NCBI GenBank assembly: GCA_027064425.1
Contig: JAMOPO010000015.1
Span: 256,001 to 320,000 of the forward strand
Direction: 5' to 3'
Source of the DNA: Methanobacteriota archaeon
GTDB lineage: Archaea; JAADCQ01; Methanopyri; Methanopyrales; Methanopyraceae
DNA: 64,000 nt
Position numbers and translations under genes: made by a program. Positions 1 to 44,804 of the stretch are shown one piece after another. A model generated the notes under the pieces. It was not told the origin of the DNA and searched no databases. It saw nothing but the letters and a program-made list of their open reading frames with translations. Each line of letters opens with the position of its first letter. Within the stretch, counting starts at the first letter, position 1.

Positions 1-935
1 GAGATATCAGGAGGATTACGGCCCCGACGATCAGGAGCGGGCCGGCGAGGAGATGGCCGAACAGGATCGGTAGCGGCGCGCCCGCGCATCGATCCCGGCG
101 GGTACGGCGAACAGCTGCAGCTGGACGAGGACCAGCCCGCGCGGCAGGGAGGCCGACCTGTAACGGTAAGCGCGGTGCGCGATCCGCCAGAACGCGAGCG
201 CCACGGCCGTCAGGGGGAGGAAGGCGACGAGGATGATGAGCGCGGCAGGGTCCAGCCGGTGACCTTCAGGCCGAGCTTCACGAGCGTTCTGGTCACCTTG
301 AGCAGCAGCTTCTTCAGGATCTTGGTCAGGAGCGCCTTGCCCGCCTTCTCACCGGCCTTGGCACCAACGGTACCCTTCTTCCCCTTCCCGCCGCCTAACA
401 GCGTCAGGGGGTGACAGCACGACCCACAGTCCCACGTGCTTCGGCTCAATGGCCTCCAGGTTTTGCCCGTACCCGGTCAGCACCCTCAGCCAGTGCTTCA
501 GGAGCTTCCGAACCACCCGCCGAGCTCGCGCGGGTGGACCGACCCGCACCTCCAGCCACGGCCAGCGCAGCCAGACGCCGTCTCGACGCCGCTCGACGAG
601 GGGGAACCTCCGGCTCTTCCTCAGAATCTTCCCGAGGTGCGGAGCAGCCGATCCTCGTCCCCATCCCGGGCGGCCAGGATCGCCTTGACACCATGGTACA
701 CCTTCCAGCTGCGGACCGGGAGTACAACGTGCCGCGGGTCCCGGAGGACCAGGACCAGTCGCACCTCCTCGGCCTCGTCCATCCGAGGGTGGAGCGAGCG
801 GTGCCGTTCCTTCACTTCGACGACGTCCTCCGGGCGCACCCGAACCGTCCCGTCCGCCCCGCTCACGACGATGCGCTCCGAGGATAACTTCACTCGAGAG
901 GAAAAGCCGGGGAGGACGCTGACCGCGCGAACCAC
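1..935 (-). pseudogene. Multiply frameshifted paralog of the orphan membrane protein at 1059-2261 (runs off the left window edge)
   Basis: Frame 621-935 (VRPEDVVEVK..RLVLVLRD..VVLPVR..VYHGVKAILAARDG.EDRL) matches 1059-2261 (VRLEDVVDLK..RLVLVTKD..VVLPVR..LYWGLKALLAARDGETDRL). Similarity continues after a shift near 640 (PLVERRRDGVWLRWPWLE vs PLAERRGGRVLLRWPWLE), with further shifts near 412, 255 and 85 into hydrophobic segments. Confidence 0.7.
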
Positions 936-1058
936 GCGTCCTTTCCCCGACCGACGCGGTCCCCGTCTCGGGTTACATCAAAACGGAAATAAAGCCGGCA
1001 CCGCTCGAGGCGCCCGGGCGCGGGGCCGCGGCCGGCCGGACCGGCCTGATACGCTCCG

Positions 1059-2261
1059 ATGAGCCGAGGGTCGAAGCGGCGCACCGTCGGCGGCGGGGGA
1101 GCCCGGTTGGTCGAGCCCATCCGCCCCGTCCCCGGCTCCTCCACCTGGGTGAAGCTCACCTCAGGGTGCGTGATCGTCCGCGAGCGCGGTACGACCCGCC
1201 GCGTGCGCCTCGAGGACGTCGTCGACCTGAAGGTCCGCCCGAAGCGGGGGCCGAGGACCTCCGATCCGATCCGGGAGGGGCGGCTCGTCCTGGTTACAAA
1301 GGATCTCGAGCGGGTCGTGCTGCCGGTCCGCGACAAGCGGCTGTACTGGGGCCTCAAGGCGCTCCTCGCCGCCAGGGACGGCGAGACCGATCGGCTGGTT
1401 AGGTACCTGACGGAGCTGCTGCGGATCGCGGGACGCCCGCCGCTCGCCGAGCGTCGAGGCGGGCGCGTGCTCCTCCGATGGCCGTGGCTCGAGCTGGAGC
1501 TGCCCGTCGAGCGGGCCGAGACCGTCTACCGCAGGCTGCTCTCCGAGTGGAGGGAGCTGCTGGAGTCCGACGAGTACGATCATGACCTGAGCCGGGAGGG
1601 CCGCCCGAGGTGGGTGGCCCTCTCCGTGCCGCTGGCACCTGCGGTGATGCTGGTGGGCGTTCACCGCAAGCTGGTCGCCCAGGCCAGTTCCGTCCTGGTG
1701 ATGGGGGCGAAGGTCGCGGTGAAGGGCCTTGGACGCGCGCTGGGACCGGGGATTTACCCGGCGCTCCGCGACGTGGGCGTCGGCCTGGTCTCCGCGCTGC
1801 CGTGGCTCGCGCTGTTCGCCTGCCTGTACTGGCTCTTGGCGCGCCGCCTACTCTCCACCGTGGATGACGAGCTGCTGAGGTTCATGCTGACGCAGAGGCT
1901 CGCGGGGATGGGAGCGGCCACGGGCCTCTGGTGCCTCCTGGCCCCGTTCGCCGCGAGGACGTACGCGCTCCCGGTCGCCGTGATCGCCGCCTGGGTGTCC
2001 GTGATTCCCGCCGTTCGGGCCGCGTCGGCGTGCCTTAAGGACCCGGAAAGGTTCGCGATCGCCATAACGGAGGTGGGAACGTGCGCGCGGCTGGCGTTCG
2101 CCGCGGGCGCGTGTGCCGCGCTGGCCGCCGCCGTGGTCGAGGGCCCGCTAGCGGGCGGCGTCGCGGAGCTGATCTCGGCGGTCGCGTACGCGCACGTCGT
2201 CTCGAACAGGGTGGAGGCCGCGTCCTGTTTGGCACGGAAAGTGTGGATCCCTGGCGGTTAA
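1059..2261 (+). CDS. Lineage-specific membrane protein: beta-rich (PH-like) N-terminal domain plus several C-terminal TM helices
   Basis: 400-aa ORF with plausible codon use, hydrophobic C-terminal half and a divergent paralog next door; true start may be slightly downstream. Confidence 0.7.
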   Translation: MSRGSKRRTVGGGGARLVEPIRPVPGSSTWVKLTSGCVIVRERGTTRRVRLEDVVDLKVRPKRGPRTSDPIREGRLVLVTKDLERVVLPVRDKRLYWGLKALLAARDGETDRLVRYLTELLRIAGRPPLAERRGGRVLLRWPWLELELPVERAETVYRRLLSEWRELLESDEYDHDLSREGRPRWVALSVPLAPAVMLVGVHRKLVAQASSVLVMGAKVAVKGLGRALGPGIYPALRDVGVGLVSALPWLALFACLYWLLARRLLSTVDDELLRFMLTQRLAGMGAATGLWCLLAPFAARTYALPVAVIAAWVSVIPAVRAASACLKDPERFAIAITEVGTCARLAFAAGACAALAAAVVEGPLAGGVAELISAVAYAHVVSNRVEAASCLARKVWIPGG

Positions 2262-2389
2262 CGGGCCGGTGGGACGGCGCGAGCGGGAAGTTAGGTCCGG
2301 ATCGGGGACGGTACCGCCTGCCGCCTTCCCTACGGAGTTCCAGCGCCGGCCGCCTTGAGTGACCATGAAATGCGGCCGGTAAGACCCTC

Positions 2390-4981
2390 CTACGGCGCCC
2401 CCAGCAGCGCCCAGGAGAGGAGGACGGCGACGAGCGCGTGCGTCATCCCGTGTACTGGAAGGCGTCCTGAGTTCATCACGCCGTAGAGCAGGGCGGCCAG
2501 CGGCCAGGGCGGCAGGGTCCAGAGGAGCAGTGCGTAGCCGAACTTCTCGGTCGCGGGCAGGACGATCGTGGTCGGAAACGCGAGCCAGTAGCCCGGATCG
2601 AGCCACCGATCCCGGCCGTGCCAGAGCGTGTCGAGGAGCACGTAGACGAACGCGGCAACCTCCGGCGAGCCCGTGAGCTCGGCGACCCGGTGCATCGCGA
2701 TCGTGTCCACCACGGGAGCCACGGCGCAGTAGAGAGCGCGCTCCGAGAGCTCCTCCGCCCAATCCTCCACGCCGGTCGCGGGGGCCGGGAGGCCCACCAC
2801 CGGCAGGGCTAGCTCCAGCAGCGGCCGGACGAGGAGTGGCAGGAGGATCCTTCCGAGGAATTCCTCAAGCAGCCCGACGGGCGCGTAGTAAGCAACGGCC
2901 GTCAGGAGCGGGCCGACCAGGCCCAGGGAGCGTGACCTCTCGGCGAGGGGCCTGAGCGTTTCGTGCAGCCAGAGCTCGAGCGTCACCAGTGCGAGGTCGA
3001 TGGGCAGCGCGCACACCGCCGCCAGCGTGTCGGGCGCGACCGCGAGCCACGGTGCCCTCAGGACGGCGCACGCCGGCTCCGAGAGCGGGTCACCCGGGCA
3101 CGGTACGAACCCGACACCTGGGAACCTCTGCCTCCACTCGAGCCACCAGGAAATCAGCCGCGGTATCGGCGCGCCCACGGGGTTAGCGGCCATGCTAACG
3201 CCCTCGTCAACGAACCGCCTGAACGGGTGATCTTCGGGAAGCTCGAAGACGACGAGGACCGGGTGCGAACCCTCCAGCGAGTGTACAACCACTCCCCCGA
3301 CCCTCCCTCCCAGCCGCTCCACCTCCTCGGCCCGCCTCTTGATCTCCTTGACCACCTGAGGGTCGCTCACCACTCGAGCCCGGAACTCGGGCCGCCCCGC
3401 GCTGAAGTCGATCCGCACGGTGAGCTCCAGGATGCCGTCCTCGCCCGGGATGGCGCAGTAGTAGCGGAGGACGCACCCCCGTTCCGAGAGCTCAAACGCC
3501 GCGTCGATCGGGGAAGCAATCGGCGGGACGAGAGTGGCGACCCGGTCCGGGGCTACGTACGCCCGAGCCGAGTCGCCCTCGAGGACGTACACGATCGGAC
3601 CGAGGTCCGTGACCGGCGCGACCAGGTACGTGCGCTCCGCGTGGTATACGAAATAACAGCTGAGGTAGTCTCCGACGAGGATCACGGCCGGGTCCGGAAG
3701 CCGGAGACTCCGGACTAAGCTCCACAGGGACAGCGACAGCTGAGGGGACGGGCCGACCGTGAACGAGTCGTCCTCGGGCCGGTACGTGCAGGTGTACGAC
3801 CTCCCCGTAGGTTCCACATACACCGTCACGTGCGCACCTTCGGCGAGCTTCTGGAGTGCCTGCTCGCGCCACTTGCACAGCAGCTGGTAATCATCGTACA
3901 GGCCGCCAGTCACCGTCGCCGCCGAGGCGGGAGTCGCCGCGACGAGCGGCAGCGCGAGTAAGACTAACGCCGCGAGTCGCCGAAGCCCCCGGATCCCTCG
4001 TCGCCCTACGGGCGGGAAGGGCAGGAGTTGCAGTGCTGGCCCGCCTTGCTCGCCTCGCCGCCACCGTGACTCCGGGAATCGGATGTTGGGGTGCTCGCGC
4101 AACACCTTCCGCAGCTCCGCCTCGCCTCCGGGCCAGACCTGTACCGCCCGGTTAATCACCTCCATAACCGGATCCTGCCAAGGTGGCCGAAAGCGAGCGT
4201 ATAGGGGCCGCACCTCCGCGGGCATTCTCAGAACGCCTACCCGGACGAGCAGGCTACGCACCAGCGCGAACCGGGCCAGGCGGTGCAGGAGGCGTGGGTC
4301 CCGGCTCACGGTCCTGGAAACGAGGATGCGCCCTTCGCGCGGCAGGAACGTGATCGTGTACACGATGACACGGTCCGGCGGAGGCGTCGGTGCGAGAGTC
4401 TTCGGCACCGGCCGGCCCAGGACCCGGAAGACGACTCGGTCGGGGTACACGACGTACTCCACCGCCTCTCGCAGCATGTCCTGCATCTCCACCGATTTCC
4501 TGGCGATCTCGCGGTCACCCTTCAGGATGACCGCCTCGTAGGGAGGCATCTGGCCCGACTGCGAGATCCGGAGCTCGCAGACGATGCCGTCGAGCAGCGC
4601 CGCGATCAGGTCCGGCCAGGCGTCCACGACCGCGGGCCCGCGCACGTTCAGCGACGCTGACACCTGGAACCCGTTCGCGGTTGCCACTACCCTCACGCAT
4701 CCGGGCCCAACCTCCACCTCGGGGCGCCCGAAGGCCAGGAACACGTCCCTGTCCGGGAGGTAGGTGACGTCGCACGTTGACGCGTCCTCCGAGTCCACAT
4801 AAATTAAAGGGCCGTCCGGCGAGTACGCAGCCACCCACCGTTGGAACACCTCGGATCGCACGTACTTCCAACCGAACCACCAGTCGTCGATCGAGCTCCC
4901 CTGGAGCAGGGGTCGACCCGCGACTGGACTCACTGCCAGCAGGACGCCCAGCACCGCGAGGAGCTCCACGCGCCGGATCAC
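2390..4981 (-). CDS. Secreted/membrane orphan protein; apparent fusion of two tandem paralogs, with a C-terminal CPBP (Abi/CAAX protease)-like domain
   Basis: 863-aa ORF with an N-terminal signal peptide and a second internal signal-like segment (RRLAALVLLALPLVAATPASA); C-terminal TM region contains EELSER, DTLWH and HGMTH motifs. Confidence 0.65.
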   Translation of the reverse strand: MIRRVELLAVLGVLLAVSPVAGRPLLQGSSIDDWWFGWKYVRSEVFQRWVAAYSPDGPLIYVDSEDASTCDVTYLPDRDVFLAFGRPEVEVGPGCVRVVATANGFQVSASLNVRGPAVVDAWPDLIAALLDGIVCELRISQSGQMPPYEAVILKGDREIARKSVEMQDMLREAVEYVVYPDRVVFRVLGRPVPKTLAPTPPPDRVIVYTITFLPREGRILVSRTVSRDPRLLHRLARFALVRSLLVRVGVLRMPAEVRPLYARFRPPWQDPVMEVINRAVQVWPGGEAELRKVLREHPNIRFPESRWRRGEQGGPALQLLPFPPVGRRGIRGLRRLAALVLLALPLVAATPASAATVTGGLYDDYQLLCKWREQALQKLAEGAHVTVYVEPTGRSYTCTYRPEDDSFTVGPSPQLSLSLWSLVRSLRLPDPAVILVGDYLSCYFVYHAERTYLVAPVTDLGPIVYVLEGDSARAYVAPDRVATLVPPIASPIDAAFELSERGCVLRYYCAIPGEDGILELTVRIDFSAGRPEFRARVVSDPQVVKEIKRRAEEVERLGGRVGGVVVHSLEGSHPVLVVFELPEDHPFRRFVDEGVSMAANPVGAPIPRLISWWLEWRQRFPGVGFVPCPGDPLSEPACAVLRAPWLAVAPDTLAAVCALPIDLALVTLELWLHETLRPLAERSRSLGLVGPLLTAVAYYAPVGLLEEFLGRILLPLLVRPLLELALPVVGLPAPATGVEDWAEELSERALYCAVAPVVDTIAMHRVAELTGSPEVAAFVYVLLDTLWHGRDRWLDPGYWLAFPTTIVLPATEKFGYALLLWTLPPWPLAALLYGVMNSGRLPVHGMTHALVAVLLSWALLGAP

Positions 4982-5188
4982 CCGGTCGCCCCAGGCCGCC
5001 GGTTCCGTGAGCCGGAGAGAAAAACGCTTCCGGTGAGATAACTTCCCGCCCGCCCGGTGTTGCAGCGTTCTTTCCGGCCCTTCGAGGACCGACTTCAGTG
5101 AGCTCCCGCCCTGATCACAGCCGGCGGAAGTGCGGCGGGAGGGGGTGGTAAAGCCGGCTGAAGGGTTGGCCCCTCGCTCCTTATCCGT

Positions 5189-20976: not shown

Positions 20977-21084
20977 TCACCTCCCCCCGACCGGCGCCCG
21001 GCCGCGGGTGAGGGCTCCGATGTACCTCCCGATTGTTACGGGCTTCAAAACGATTCGCGGGAAGAAGGGCGGGGGCGCGTGAGC

Positions 21085-21972
21085 TCAATCGCCCCGCGTC
21101 TGCATCCGCTCCTCCTCCGGGATCTCGGAGATATCGATGCCCTGCATCGCGACCTCGTCGCCCAGGTTCTTCGAGACCTCCGCCACGACCTCCGGGTCGT
21201 CGTAGTAAGCCGTCGCCTCCACGATCGCCTCCGCCATCTCCTGCGGCCGGTCCGACTTGAAGATGCCCGAGCCCACGAAGATGCCGTCCGCGCCCAGCTG
21301 CATCATCAGCGCCGCGTCCGCCGGCGTCGCGATGCCGCCGGCCGCGAAGTTCACCACGGGCAGCCGGCCTAGGCTGGCCACCTCCGCGACCAGGTCGAAG
21401 GGCACGCCGTACTCCTTCGCCTTCTGGTACAGCTCCTCCTTGTCCAGCTTGGTCAGCTCCGAGATCTCCTGCCGCATGATGCGCATGTGCCGCACGGCCT
21501 CGGCGACGTTGCCCGTCCCCGCCTCACCCTTCGTCCGGATCATCGCGGCGCCCTCGGCGATCCGCCGCAGGGCCTCGCCCAGGTTCCGCGCGCCGCACAC
21601 GAACGGGACGTCGAACTCCCACTTGTTGATGTGTCGCTCCTCGTCCGCCGGGGTGAGCACCTCGGACTCGTCGATCATGTCCACGCCGATGGCCTCCAAC
21701 ACCTGCGCCTCCGCCACGTGGCCGATCCGGCACTTGGCCATCACGGGGATCGTGACGTGGTCCATGATCTCCTCGATTTTCGCCGGGTCGCACATTCGAG
21801 CCACTCCACCGGCCTTCCGGATGTCCGCGGGTACCTTCTCGAGCACCATGACCGCGACCGCACCGGCGTCCTCCGCGATCTGCGCTTGCTCAACGTTGGT
21901 CACGTCCATCACGACGCCGCCTTTCAGCATGCGCGCGAAGCCCGTCTTAACCCGCCAGGTGCCCGTCTTCAT
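21085..21972 (-). CDS. pdxS: Pyridoxal 5'-phosphate synthase lyase subunit
   Basis: [39 protein letters not shown]; start at ATG 21972. Confidence 0.96.
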
Positions 21973-22129
21973 CGGTCGGTCCCCCGACGCCCACTCAGCC
22001 CAACCGGAACATGATATCATCTGTGAAACCCTTATCGGACGGATGGTGTGACCGAGTGAGTCGGCTGCACCAACTAGGGGCGCTAACGGGGGCGCGGTCG
22101 AGGGCACCACCGGCCGCGGGGCGGGTACC

Positions 22130-22882
22130 GTGGGCAAGGTGTACTTCGTGGGCGCGGGGCCGGGCGACCCCGAGCTGATGACGCTCAAGGGGCTGCGCGT
22201 TCTCCGCCGGGCGGACCTGGTGATCTACCCCGGCTCGCTGACCCCGCGGGAGGCCGTGGAGGAGTGGGCCCCCGACGCGGAGCTCGTGGACAGCTACGGC
22301 CGGTCGCTCGAGGAGCTGGTCGAGCTGATGGTCGAGGCGGCCCGGGAGGGCAAGACCGTGGTGCGGCTGGTCTCCGGCGATCCCTTCATCTACAGCTCCG
22401 TTTACGAGCAAGTTCGGGAGCTGGAGCGGGCGGGGGTGGAGTACGAGATCGTTCCCGGCGTGAGCTCGGTGAACGCCGCCGCGGCGGCCCTGGGCGAGGA
22501 GCTGACCAAGCCCGGCGTCAGCCAGACGGTCATTCTCACCCGACCGGCGGGCAGAACGGGGAAGCCGAAGGGCGAGTCTCTGCGCGAGCTCGCCCGGCAC
22601 GGCTGCACGATGGTCATCTTCCTGGGCGTCCGGTACCTGGAGGACATCGTGGAGTCGCTTCTCGAGGGTGGCTACTCCGAGGACACCCCGGTGGCCGTCG
22701 TGTACAAGGTGTCCACTCCGGAGGAAAAGATCGTGAGGGGAACGCTGGCGGACATCGTGGAGAAGGTTAAGGAGGAGGGGATCGATCGGACGGCGCTGAT
22801 CATCGTGGGCGACGTGCTTCGAGAGGAGGGTGAGCGCTCACACCTGTACTCGAAGGAGTACGCGAGGAGCGTGAGAAGATGA
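22130..22882 (+). CDS. cbiF: Cobalt-precorrin-4 C11-methyltransferase
   Basis: [34 protein letters not shown]. Confidence 0.92.
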
Positions 22883-33726: not shown

Positions 33727-33861
33727 GCCCCGGCGGTGTAGCCCGGTCAAGGGCCCGCGGGTGACCGCGGGCCCGCCGATATCATGCGGGACTTTCGAGG
33801 CCCGCGTCCCGCGGGCCGAGGATATCCCGCGACCCGGGTTCAAATCCCGGCCGGGGCACCA
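33727..33861 (+). tRNA. tRNA-Glu(TTC) with two BHB introns (33750-33780 in the D-loop; 33798-33823 at 37/38), C8, encoded CCA
   Basis: Acceptor GCCCCGG/CCGGGGC, GGTTCAAATCC T-loop, CT-TTC-G anticodon; both inserts are GC hairpins bounded by 3-nt bulges (CAA/ATA, CGA/ATA). Confidence 0.95.
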
Positions 33862-33906
33862 AGCCCGGAATCGTTACGAATTTCGTAACGTTTGAGCGGG
33901 CGAAGG

Positions 33907-34602
33907 TCAGAGGGTGACCTCGTCGGGGCTGCCCTCCTCCACGATCTTACCGTCCCGGAGCACGACCACGCGGTCGGCCCACCGGGTGAGTGACAGGTCG
34001 TGCGTGACCATAACTATGGTCCGACCGTCCTCGTTCAAGCTCTTGAAGACCTCCATGATTCGATGCGAGTTCTTCGTGTCCAACTGACCGGTGGGCTCGT
34101 CCGCCAGGATAACCTCCGGGTCGTTGGCCAGGGCGCGGGCGATGGCTACCCGCTGCCGCTCCCCTCCACTCAGCTGGTTGGGGAACTTGTCGAAGTGCTC
34201 CTCGGAAAGCCCGACCTTCAGCAGCAGGCGCTTGGCCCGCTCTTCGTCCTCCCCGTCCGCGAGGGCCATCGGGAACATCACGTTCTCGAGGACGGTCAGC
34301 GTCTCAATGAGGTTGAACTCCTGGAAAACGAAGCCCACGTACCGGTTGCGGATCCGGGCCAGCTCCCGGTCGCTGAGGTTCGAGATCTCCCTTCCGGCCA
34401 CCTTGACCCGGCCTGAAGTGGGCGTGTCCAGCGCGCCCATGATGTGGAGTAGGGTGGACTTCCCGGAGCCTGAGGGGCCCACGATCATCAGGAACTCGCC
34501 GCGCCGGACCCGGAGGTCCACGCCTCGCAGCGCCTCCACCCGGGTGGGGCCCGAGTTGTACACCTTCCGGACGCCCTCCAGCTCGATGACGACCTCGGCC
34601 AT
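33907..34602 (-). CDS. ABC transporter ATP-binding protein (LolD/MacB-like)
   Basis: GPSGSGKST, LSGGERQR, LADEPTG. Confidence 0.93.
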   Translation of the reverse strand: MAEVVIELEGVRKVYNSGPTRVEALRGVDLRVRRGEFLMIVGPSGSGKSTLLHIMGALDTPTSGRVKVAGREISNLSDRELARIRNRYVGFVFQEFNLIETLTVLENVMFPMALADGEDEERAKRLLLKVGLSEEHFDKFPNQLSGGERQRVAIARALANDPEVILADEPTGQLDTKNSHRIMEVFKSLNEDGRTIVMVTHDLSLTRWADRVVVLRDGKIVEEGSPDEVTL

Positions 34603-35791: not shown

Positions 35792-36514
35792 TTAAATTGA
35801 TTCCAGGGATTTCTTTGGCGTGCCCCGGCGCACAGGCTTTCCATAAATCCTTTTAATCTCCTCGGCCTTGACCGACTCGCCCTCCCGCCGGACCGTCGGG
35901 CGCCCGTCCGGCTTGATCGCGTGCACGCGGAACAGCATCCCGTCCAGCTCGTAGATCTCGCCGACGGTGAACTCCTCCTCCCGATCCACCTCGACCTTCT
36001 CCGAGATCGTGTAGCCGGACGGCAGGTTGATCGAGACGCCGATGCGGGCCGGGATGTCCAGCGAGACCGTCCACACCGACTGGATGTCCATCACCCTGGC
36101 CCGCTTCACGCTGTCCTCCTTGTAGGTGGCAATGTTCGTGATCTCGACGCGCTCACCGTCCACTTCCAGCTCGTCACCGACCTCCAGCTCCTCCCACGGG
36201 TCCAGCTTGATCTCCTTGCACTCCGACTCCTCGTACCGGCTGATCGTCACCTTCACCTTCTTCAGCCCGTAAAACACCAGCCGCGCCGGGTTGACGGTAC
36301 CGCAGCTCTCGCACCGGGCCAGCACGTTGGCTATGTACCGCGGGACTCCCTTCTCGTCCGGGCCCTTCTCGTGTACCGTGGCCCGCACGACCTCTTGAGG
36401 CACCTCGTCGTCCGGCGAGCAGCCCGAGCACGGGGCGTAGACGATCCTACCCTCCAGGTCCGAGTCCGACAGGTCCTCCACGGTGGTCTTCGTGTCGATC
36501 GTGATCACGGGCAC
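35792..36514 (-). CDS. Archaeal Zn-finger protein (HVO_0476-like)
   Basis: CSGC...RCESCG pairs, VTISRYEES, IKRIYG; GTG start inferred. Confidence 0.75.
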   Translation of the reverse strand: MPVITIDTKTTVEDLSDSDLEGRIVYAPCSGCSPDDEVPQEVVRATVHEKGPDEKGVPRYIANVLARCESCGTVNPARLVFYGLKKVKVTISRYEESECKEIKLDPWEELEVGDELEVDGERVEITNIATYKEDSVKRARVMDIQSVWTVSLDIPARIGVSINLPSGYTISEKVEVDREEEFTVGEIYELDGMLFRVHAIKPDGRPTVRREGESVKAEEIKRIYGKPVRRGTPKKSLESI

Positions 36515-36536
36515 CACCCCCAGGGGGTCCGGCACG

Positions 36537-36953
36537 TTGGAGGTCAGGATCCGGGCTCGCGGTCACGAGAACGTAACGGGCCGGCACCGGAGCACGTTCG
36601 AGATCACTAAGGACCCGGAGATCGGACCCACGGCGGACTGCATCATAGGGGTCAGGGCGGACCGCGCCTGCGCCGACTTACCGGAGGAGTTCAAGCGTGC
36701 GCTGCGGGCAGGGGCCCGGGTGGAGGTCACGCTGGAGGCGGGCGGCGTCCGAGACCGAGCCGTGGGCAGGGGTGACCCCAGCCTTAAACTCTCTGATGAA
36801 CGCAGCATGGTTTTCCGACGCAGCGATTACGTGGACGAGCGCACCGTGCTCGTCCGGTGCGACAAGGCGGCGCGCGACCTGGACAGAGAGCTCATCGAGC
36901 GGCTCCGGGACCCGGGTACGGTCCTGGAGGTGAGGCTTCGGGTCCTGGAGTGA
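36537..36953 (+). CDS. DUF371 family protein
   Basis: GHENV.G.H.STFEITKD, DCIIGV, KAARDL. Confidence 0.85.
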   Translation: MEVRIRARGHENVTGRHRSTFEITKDPEIGPTADCIIGVRADRACADLPEEFKRALRAGARVEVTLEAGGVRDRAVGRGDPSLKLSDERSMVFRRSDYVDERTVLVRCDKAARDLDRELIERLRDPGTVLEVRLRVLE

Positions 36954-36999
36954 GGGCGCCCGCGCGGGCCATCGTTAAGGGTTTCGTAACAATTGGCCG

Positions 37000-37077
<78 letters not shown>

Positions 37078-44667: not shown

Positions 44668-44758
44668 GCCGGGGCGGCCGAGCCCGGTCCAAGGCGCGGG
44701 ACTGCTAATCCCGTGGCCCGTATGGGCCGCCCGGGTTCAAATCCCGGCCCCGGCGCCA
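44668..44758 (+). tRNA. tRNA-Ser(GCT), long variable arm, C8, encoded CCA
   Basis: GCCGGGG-C-GGCCGAGCCCGG..CGGGA-CTGCTAA-TCCCG, variable arm GGCCC-GTAT-GGGCC, GGTTCAAATCC, G73-CCA. Confidence 0.95.
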
Positions 44759-44804
44759 GCCGGTATCGTTACGCGTCACATAACGGTTCTGGGGGCCTCG
44801 CGAG

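Follow-up and report, generated by a model that had tools for sequence, protein, structure and literature searches.

A 23-bp inverted repeat, hereafter the dyad, follows the tRNA genes in a 64,000-nucleotide stretch of DNA from a Methanobacteriota archaeon of the family Methanopyraceae (GenBank assembly GCA_027064425.1, contig JAMOPO010000015.1, positions 256,001 to 320,000; C15:256001-320000 in the contig numbering used here), and this whole stretch is referred to as the window. The source genome (G000) comprises 1.54 Mb in 57 contigs, with a G+C content of ~68%. The distribution of the dyad in this genome and its congeners points to a general, bidirectional, and genus-specific 3′-end signal, which very probably serves all the stable-RNA genes and many protein-coding units; this agrees with the role in 3′-end formation proposed by a sequence-only reading of the window, given that RNA ends in a related genome lie 6–7 nt upstream of the dyad. 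As to how the signal is read, we tentatively favor recognition as duplex DNA by a putative symmetric protein, which would halt RNA polymerase as a leaky roadblock.

Occurrence after tRNA Genes and Spread within the Genus

When up to 5 mismatches in 20 positions are allowed, a dyad is found after all 34 Rfam tRNA matches in G000, which extends to the whole genome the earlier statement that every tRNA gene is followed by the element. In 24 of these 34 tRNAs the dyad starts exactly 9 nt past the discriminator (CCA plus a 6-nt linker). In this genome the tRNAs have C as nucleotide 8 and a CCA encoded in the gene, in agreement with the Methanopyrus origin suggested by the sequence-only reading; further intron-containing tRNAs called by ARAGORN also have the dyad, and the long-intron calls of this program, with neither a CCA end nor a dyad, look spurious. 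The tRNA-linked copies amount to 30/30 in G001, 31/31 in G002, 26/26 in G004, and 23/25 in G003, where the two dyad-less calls do not end in CCA. Matches with at most 2 mismatches number 45 in G000 and 5, 6, 28, 47, and 37 in five congeners, a search of 15 genomes from other archaeal families gave none, and for the control pattern (reversed) the count was 0 in every genome searched; in the two congeners with low counts, G001 and G002, a more degenerate copy still stands after every tRNA. The dyads after mcrB and after the thermosome gene are retained in all five congeners, with diverged flanks.

The consensus of the dyad is ATCGTTAYGA-N3-TCRTAACGAT, with GTTA-N9-TAAC as the invariant core. The 8-N7-8 form originally described is the part conserved across the genus, and the true arms in G000 are longer, with 10 bp around a 3-nt center. 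Positions G4, T5, A19, and C20 are invariant in 149 of 149 tRNA-linked copies, and T6 and A18 nearly so. The spacing is equally strict: the two 8-mers are separated by 7 nt in 77 cases and by 6 and 8 nt in one case each, and 66 of 94 exact half-sites have a partner (≤1 mismatch) at 7-nt spacing, most of the others having a weaker one. The exact core GTTA-N9-TAAC has 69 matches, compared with 0 for the reversed and 0 for the everted arrangement, 7 for N8, and 5 for N10. In the tRNA-linked copies of G000, the near flank shows G at −1 (30/39) and A at 0 (32/39), and A76 of the CCA falls at −6 (28/39); the far flank is kept less well, T at 24 being present in only 16/39. The copies at protein genes have no preferred orientation, 9 of 25 scoring better in the gene direction, and symmetry at the central positions 11/13 is partial and is not used as an argument.

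These regularities make it very improbable that the dyad is a mobile repeat of the repetitive extragenic palindromic (REP) type or a tyrosine-recombinase core site. The ~100 imperfect extragenic palindromes at gene 3′ ends and the 8-7-8 geometry, which resembles that of recombinase core sites, would suit such an origin; nevertheless, orthologous positions are conserved across six genomes, the spacing to the CCA is exact, and RNA ends are tied to the dyad. Partner sites of a tyrosine recombinase would have identical spacers, whereas the spacers of the dyad vary between copies, which would block recombination, and the recombinase-like core site suggested earlier was abandoned on this ground. Elements of the REP or bacterial interspersed mosaic element (BIME) class would likewise be mobile and variably placed, and what was found instead is orthologous placement with exact spacing, although no search for RAYT was made.

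Two sets of tRNA calls are unusual. A call of ~100 nt with a four-base anticodon (gggg) was made by ARAGORN in G000 (C15:41309-41409) and at a locus of G002 (L036), with weak Rfam scores (31.8 and 35.7 bits) and a normal dyad, and is probably a mis-modelled intron-bearing tRNA-Pro. Near-identical extra copies of tRNA-His and tRNA-Ser(TGA), together with their dyads, occur on contigs of 2–3 kb (C16:2594-2700, C18:350-456, and C32:254-373), which suggests strain variants or collapsed assembly repeats.

RNA 3′ Ends in a Related Genome

The RNA data come from four size-fractionated runs of one 2013 study and match the complete congener genome G002; they were mapped to one 19.9-kb locus of this genome with four tRNAs (L054). 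Non-genomic A-runs adjoin the CCA ends of tRNA-Ile and tRNA-Trp, and for this reason A-runs were taken as marks of 3′ ends. T-runs adjoin a position in tRNA-Ile resembling a reverse-transcriptase stop and a position behind a TATA-like box, which indicates that 5′ ends were tailed too in the library. The 3′ end of RNase P RNA lies at 5091 in all four runs, 6 nt before the dyad at 5098-5120. The mRNA of the plus-strand open reading frame (ORF) 49..1584 ends at 1615, 6 nt before the dyad at 1622-1644, and a tRNA-Gly species with a CCA+AG end stops at 1651, 6 nt off the other edge of this same dyad. For the minus-strand ORF 1952..2905, three runs place the mRNA end at 1936, which is 7 nt short of a degenerate dyad. 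Two other 3′ ends in the locus come after T-rich tracts, so that classical terminators are also present. In a hairpin terminator the RNA would end past the hairpin, in a U-tract, and here the dyad-linked ends are found 6–7 nt upstream of the dyad. The text of Su et al. 2013 lists precursors of tRNAs that carry 5′ leaders and introns and none carrying 3′ trailers, and places 3′ processing first.

The mapped ends could also be considered as transcription starts, the dyad being a bidirectional promoter with its AT-rich arms as TATA-like boxes and the starts ~26 nt from the far arm. The distance of ~26 nt between the ends and the center of the distal arm is the usual archaeal TATA-to-start distance, the library tails 5′ ends too, and some downstream genes begin 0–20 nt from the dyad. 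However, the four dyad-linked ends would then be pyrimidine starts (U, C, C, and C), when initiation prefers purines according to Su et al. 2013, and the orientation of the genes makes the mapped ends sense-strand 3′ ends; both points led to the rejection of the promoter, which is extremely improbable also in view of the many copies between convergent genes and of arms unlike the TTTAAA-type box A of the genus.

Several contigs of the locus deserve separate description. Contigs starting in the middle of the dyad after tRNA-Ile (X2 record 15 and X4 record 32) were considered as products of a cut in the loop and set aside, being untailed and thus not RNA ends. None of the 32 long contigs listed bridges a dyad, 263 further pieces standing outside this set, and this result is not counted as evidence. 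At L054:16332-16702, contigs from two runs span the distal half of the tRNA-Ile dyad and reach ~100 nt upstream of the next gene's TATA-like boxes; read-through transcription, a small RNA that has escaped annotation, and carry-over of DNA are possible sources. At L054:7403-7477, one RNA contig joins 7477 to 7403, which corresponds to a 75-nt circle and fits the published circular C/D box small RNAs (sRNAs) of the genus.

Other Stable RNAs and Protein Genes

The dyad had been described as an element downstream of tRNA genes, a view too narrow for the 110 loci with ≤5 mismatches in G000, where other stable-RNA genes and ~40 protein-gene ends are closed by it as well. Among these loci, 39 lie beside ARAGORN tRNAs, 40 lie ≤150 nt after the ends of crude ORFs (24 of them with ≤3 mismatches), 21 are otherwise intergenic, and 10 fall inside crude ORFs, 9 of the latter with 4–5 mismatches, consistent with chance. 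Regarding the stable RNAs, the model ends of 5S rRNA, signal recognition particle RNA, and RNase P RNA are 12, 15, and 24 nt before a dyad, respectively, and a distance of 135 nt separates the 23S end from the dyad that follows it. Past the 16S 3′ end come, at ~85 nt, first a dyad, next a C/D-like sRNA, and then a second dyad, and clear C/D box sRNAs were seen by eye between pairs of dyads. The protein genes closed by a dyad include those of the thermosome, McrB, McrA (at the operon end), AtpA, L7Ae, S15, L32e, rubrerythrin, and PdxS, together with several secreted proteins with C-terminal anchors, and are likely to be highly expressed, judging from the identities of the families.

The spacers between stop codon and dyad are C-rich and G-poor, as at C15:42886, C5:10122, C52:143022, and window positions 21055-21084 (−). 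On the sense strand, 25 spacers (641 nt) contain 54.9% C and 23.2% G, compared with 34.9% C and 34.2% G after all 1399 crude gene ends. Words like CCCTCACGCCCC, followed by CTTCTTCCC, are frequent in them. A second motif between stop and dyad, CCCTCACGCCC, was tried and not retained, its 171 matches (≤1 mismatch) not exceeding the 161 of the reversed control; a dyad comes after 12 of the 171 matches genome-wide, and only the skew in composition was kept.

Some copies are placed where transcription has to continue. In the mcrBDCGA operon, a good dyad stands between mcrB and mcrD in all six genomes of the genus, no TATA-like element was found before mcrD, and only ~20 nt separate the dyad from the mcrD frame; the gene next after atpA, which encodes an RNA methyltransferase, begins at the last bases of the dyad. 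A site without terminating function, be it a boundary element, a site for topoisomerase, or one connected with replication conflicts, placed 3′ of units under heavy transcription in the manner of the gyrase-binding REP elements, would be tolerated within the mcr operon, and would agree with the concentration of copies behind stable-RNA genes and behind genes presumed to be strongly expressed and with the restriction to one genus. Nevertheless, it would explain neither the RNA ends at −6/−7 in four RNA classes nor the exact 9-nt spacing from discriminator to dyad in 24 of 34 tRNAs, and is quite improbable.

Further observations concern individual loci. The 3′ end of the thermosome gene (C3:131778-131817) has two overlapping tandem dyads offset by 17 nt, which are common to a convergent ORF for a small membrane protein; the congeners have a single copy there. 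The 16S 3′ end, the 23S 3′ end, and the 16S 5′ end are on separate contigs (C57:192839-193351, C26:1-600, and C29:1-700), no 23S gene comes after 16S, the place being taken by the arrangement of dyad, sRNA, and dyad given above, and no rRNA adjoins tRNA-Ala(TGC) at C57:142965 over the 11 kb scanned; the genes for rRNA may be unlinked in G000. A repeat of ~28 nt, GAGCTCATCGTATAAGTTGGTTGCTGG, and its variants occur on either strand 60–90 nt from dyads on short contigs that also carry dyad clusters, at C2 (~580 and 3190), C13 (~2150), C46 (~60), and C48 (~830), and may represent a small-RNA or mobile unit present in multiple copies, at which the assembly broke.

Reading at the Level of DNA or RNA

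Covariation between the arms was examined in the 149 tRNA-linked copies of five genomes, with the right-hand letters shuffled within genomes, and no pair was Watson–Crick above the shuffled level (permutation fractions 0.047–1.0, two measures). Pair 8/16 is Watson–Crick in 71 copies, for an expectation of 67.5 ± 5.2, and pair 10/14 in 83, for 87.4 ± 3.9; the letters at 8/16 are CG in 37 copies, CA in 48, TA in 34, and TG in 21, and among the arm mismatches A.C (123) exceeds G.U (67). The predicted hairpin has a mean energy at 37 °C of −6.3 kcal/mol in G000 and −3.8 kcal/mol in G002, and when the energies are extrapolated to 95 °C, within the growth range of 84–110 °C given in PMC5217627, none of 39 copies in G000 and none of 31 in G002 is predicted to fold, nor is the perfect consensus. 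A stable stem maintained through compensatory changes, as in a hairpin-type intrinsic terminator, was not observed, with no covariation in the 149 copies and no folding predicted at 95 °C in the 70 copies analyzed. The lack of covariation, the thermolabile hairpin, and the conservation in the order core, spacer, core together favor recognition of duplex DNA by a two-fold symmetric protein, with three reservations: the energy model is extrapolated, copies that share descent are not independent of one another, and an imperfect RNA helix might be held together by a protein. The site for a dimeric DNA-binding protein, one of the possibilities raised by the sequence-only reading, is thus favored by the sequence statistics (no covariation, fixed spacing, and an unstable hairpin), and the protein itself is putative.

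A signal at the level of RNA would consist of a hairpin formed by the transcribed dyad, held by a protein, and directing an endonucleolytic cut ~6 nt upstream. Such a cut would yield the ends of tRNA, RNase P RNA, and mRNA, would separate the cistron mcrB from mcrDCGA, and would include the idea, already proposed in PMC5217627, of a target for the tRNA 3′ maturation enzyme. The intra-operon copies must be transcribed through, a ruler-type nuclease would also be expected to cut at a constant distance from either edge of one dyad, the nucleases concerned have candidates (a full-length RNase Z-like gene in 6/6 genomes of the genus and aCPSF1 in G000), and an RNA contig lies over the distal half of the tRNA-Ile dyad, although this contig is untailed and may be DNA carry-over. 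Nevertheless, this signal, which is the main rival of the DNA-level reading, appears somewhat unlikely, considering that covariation is absent from 149 copies, in which A.C mismatches outnumber G.U and pair 8/16 is C.A in 48 (32%), and that the hairpin is predicted to stay open at 95 °C in each of the 70 copies analyzed. Moreover, the lower stem is the most conserved part and the loop shows no conservation, whereas the opposite holds in most hairpins bound by proteins, and symmetric conservation of core, spacer, and core is typical of DNA sites.

With respect to the nucleases, the full-length RNase Z homologue of G000 has a score of 187 bits and does not reach the equivalog cut-off (293), and the presence of a homologue in all six genomes gives no support to a loss of RNase Z from the genus, which would have hinted at a route free of processing. 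The canonical aCPSF1/FttA is encoded in G000 (TIGR03675, 909.8 bits), and the tract upstream of the ends is C-rich, not U-rich. Since FttA cuts 22 nt behind the RNA 3′ end (PMC11616081), ends at −6, if produced by FttA, would place the polymerase at dyad position +16, where no feature explaining a pause was found.

The preferred reading, a roadblock on duplex DNA, would then operate as follows. The 23 bp would be bound by a two-fold symmetric, dimeric protein, RNA polymerase would be halted, and the RNA would be released or cut; transcripts from either side would end 6–7 nt before the dyad, which for most tRNAs would be exactly the encoded CCA, and in mRNAs the upstream C-rich, G-poor tract may help to load the resident aCPSF1/FttA nuclease. 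The protein, the reading as DNA, and the nature of the mapped ends as products of termination and not of processing are what we infer here.

Several points weigh against this roadblock. A tight terminator is excluded by the copies between mcrB and mcrD and after atpA, which polymerase must pass. When the RNA ends at −6, the downstream DNA channel of the polymerase should already cover the near half-site; known roadblocks leave the end 11–15 nt from the site, and the dyad departs from them also in its near-perfect symmetry, in acting on two sides, in the end lying only 6–7 nt from the site edge, and in a binding protein that is putative. In the tRNA-linked copies, conservation is stronger in the half next to the tRNA and in its flank than in the distal half, which is unexpected for a plain symmetric dimer. 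Other reservations concern the data: the end mapping covers one ~20-kb locus of a relative, uses assembled contigs, and depends on a library that also tailed 5′ ends; for the ends at 1615 and 1936, 22–24 unaligned letters were taken to be tails; the gene ends in G000 come from a crude ORF caller based on GC at the third codon position (GC3); and the nearest-neighbor energies at 95 °C ignore cell salt and proteins.

A further possibility is an intrinsic, DNA-directed stop, in which the polymerase or a bound elongation factor senses the near half-site in the downstream channel and the second half-site serves polymerases of the opposite direction, with no separate site-specific protein. An RNA end at −6 puts the near half (positions 1–10) in this channel, the half and flank proximal to the tRNA are the better kept, and the ends are symmetric on either side of one dyad. 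Two independent signals would not be expected, however, to show a fixed spacing between the halves (77 vs. 1 vs. 1) and so few lone halves, and no archaeal precedent was found in the literature searched, the routes described being oligo-T and aCPSF1/FttA (PMC13675443); such a stop is improbable.

Copies of the Dyad in the Window

A search of the window with the originally proposed IUPAC pattern (≤2 mismatches, both strands, with 100 shuffles as control) gave four loci with seven strand matches, for an expectation of 0.02, and 0 of the 100 shuffles reached seven. On re-check, the three tRNA-linked dyads had the sequences, the coordinates, and the distances between CCA and the GTTAC core first reported, namely 11 nt for tRNA-Glu, whose CCA ends at 33861, and 9 nt each for tRNA-Arg and tRNA-Ser. 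The reported lack of an oligo-T terminator was borne out as well: no T-run follows any of the three, and no T-run of at least five, as in archaeal oligo-T terminators, was found in or beside the listed tRNA-linked copies of G000. The Glu and Arg dyads do lie between convergent genes, with an ABC ATPase gene (−) and a DUF371 gene (+) as the respective partners, and the Glu dyad is common to tRNA-Glu and the ATPase gene (Table 1). A DUF2098 gene comes next after the Ser dyad, its likely ATG ~18 nt beyond it. The fourth dyad does not count as a clear copy within an operon, the gene that comes after pdxS being a thymidylate-synthase-like ORF and not pdxT.

Table 1. Dyads of the window and adjoining features (window coordinates)
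Feature	Coordinates	Strand	Sequence or remarks
Dyad after tRNA-Glu	33870..33892	none	8-N7-8 form ATCGTTAC-GAATTTC-GTAACGTT; 10-bp-arm form ATCGTTACGA-ATT-TCGTAACGTT
Probable intron-containing tRNA-Glu(UUC)	33739..33861	+	encoded CCA at end; assigned by eye only
8-nt linker from CCA to Glu dyad	33862..33869	+	AGCCCGGA; semi-conserved GA at its end
Convergent ABC-transporter ATPase gene	33907..34602	−	stop codon 14 nt from Glu dyad
Dyad after tRNA-Arg	36971..36993		minus-strand reading ATTGTTACGA-AAC-CCTTAACGAT
tRNA-Arg(TCT)	37000..37077	−	encoded CCA; linker to dyad 6 nt
Convergent DUF371 gene	36483..36953	+	end 17 nt before Arg dyad
Dyad after tRNA-Ser	44765..44787	none	ATCGTTACGC-GTC-ACATAACGGT
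tRNA-Ser(GCT)	44668..44758	+	encoded CCA; linker to dyad 6 nt
Fourth dyad, 3′ of pdxS, no tRNA	21032..21054		minus-strand reading ATCGTTTTGA-AGC-CCGTAACAAT
C-rich, G-poor spacer from pdxS stop to dyad	21055..21084	−	GCTCACGCGCCCCCGCCCTTCTTCCCGCGA on minus strand
pdxS (SOR/SNZ family) open frame	21085..22188	−	3′ end closed by the fourth dyad

The label tRNA-Glu was not confirmed, in that both ARAGORN and Rfam, the latter also at a loose threshold, miss this gene. By eye, the acceptor stem (7 bp), the T-arm, the anticodon loop (CTTTCGA), and the CCA can be made out, with insertions, and the T-arm and acceptor of 33739-33861 were recognized as tRNA-like. The insertions account for the failure of ARAGORN (at default settings) and Rfam, and agree with the D-loop intron of Methanopyrus tRNA-Glu published in Su et al. 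2013. With introns allowed, ARAGORN mis-called the locus as a tRNA-Val with a 1110-nt intron.

Comparison with Known Systems

The element had been put forward as one without any known description, which does not hold: a palindromic motif CGTTA(N)9TAACG, ~10 bp after tRNA genes and in this lineage only, was reported for Methanopyrus kandleri AV19 (BMC Genomics 2017;18:27, PMC5217627). According to that report, the motif came from a motif-discovery scan and concerned roughly half the tRNA genes in a single strain, and it was speculated to be the target of a tRNA 3′ maturation enzyme. The published motif and the dyad have the same core, the same spacing, and the same position after tRNAs, and a core ~10 bp past the tRNA gene is found here for 34/34 tRNAs of G000 and 31/31 of G002; no other description of the dyad was found in the literature searched. 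Relative to the text of that report, the complete coverage of tRNAs across the genus (five genomes), the extension to other stable RNAs and to ~40 protein-gene ends of mRNAs, the fixed spacing, the absence of arm covariation, the C-rich tract, and the ends at −6/−7 are new. A GC-rich hyperthermophile genus appears to use a 23-bp dyad for every stable RNA and many major mRNAs.

REP and BIME elements and hairpin intrinsic terminators are imperfect palindromes at gene 3′ ends, sometimes within operons or shared by convergent genes, and the dyad is likewise. It differs from them in a sequence conserved beyond pairing, in a thermolabile hairpin without a U-tract, in RNA ends that lie upstream, and in the exact spacing to tRNAs. 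Closer to the archaeal repertoire, oligo-T tracts and aCPSF1/FttA are the routes of termination given in reviews, and a sequence-specific terminator site or factor was not found in these reviews (PMC13675443). What resembles these routes here is a pyrimidine-rich tract upstream of the end, together with an encoded aCPSF1 and with classical T-tract ends elsewhere in the related genome (PMC13675443, PMC11616081). In contrast, the dyad has no T-run, its tract is C-rich and not U-rich, and position +16 has no known pause feature.

If a protein reads the dyad, it would represent a new class of archaeal transcription factor and would offer a simple route to the 3′ ends of CCA-encoding tRNAs at ~100 °C. 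The dyad could serve as a handle for affinity purification, as a compact bidirectional terminator part for thermophile genetics, and, in annotation, as a guide to the ends of unannotated small RNA genes in the genus. The systems to which such a factor would be compared are the protein roadblock terminators, Reb1/Nsi1 and TTF-I at Pol I genes, Reb1 for Pol II, and mTERF1 in mitochondria. A conserved site at a short fixed distance downstream of RNA 3′ ends is what defines these roadblocks and what is found in the dyad, and both have a sequence-specific site just past the 3′ end of stable RNAs and are possibly leaky; for Reb1p, roadblocking is treated in a review (PMC10310618). It is possible, although doubtful, that the genus follows an archaeal version of the Reb1/TTF-I/mTERF logic, in which a putative symmetric DNA-bound factor would end all stable RNAs and the top mRNAs in both directions by stopping polymerase 6–7 nt before the site, with tRNA ends ≤2 nt from the CCA and trailer processing largely skipped. 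A roadblock at the dyad, if true, would be the first such system in Archaea.

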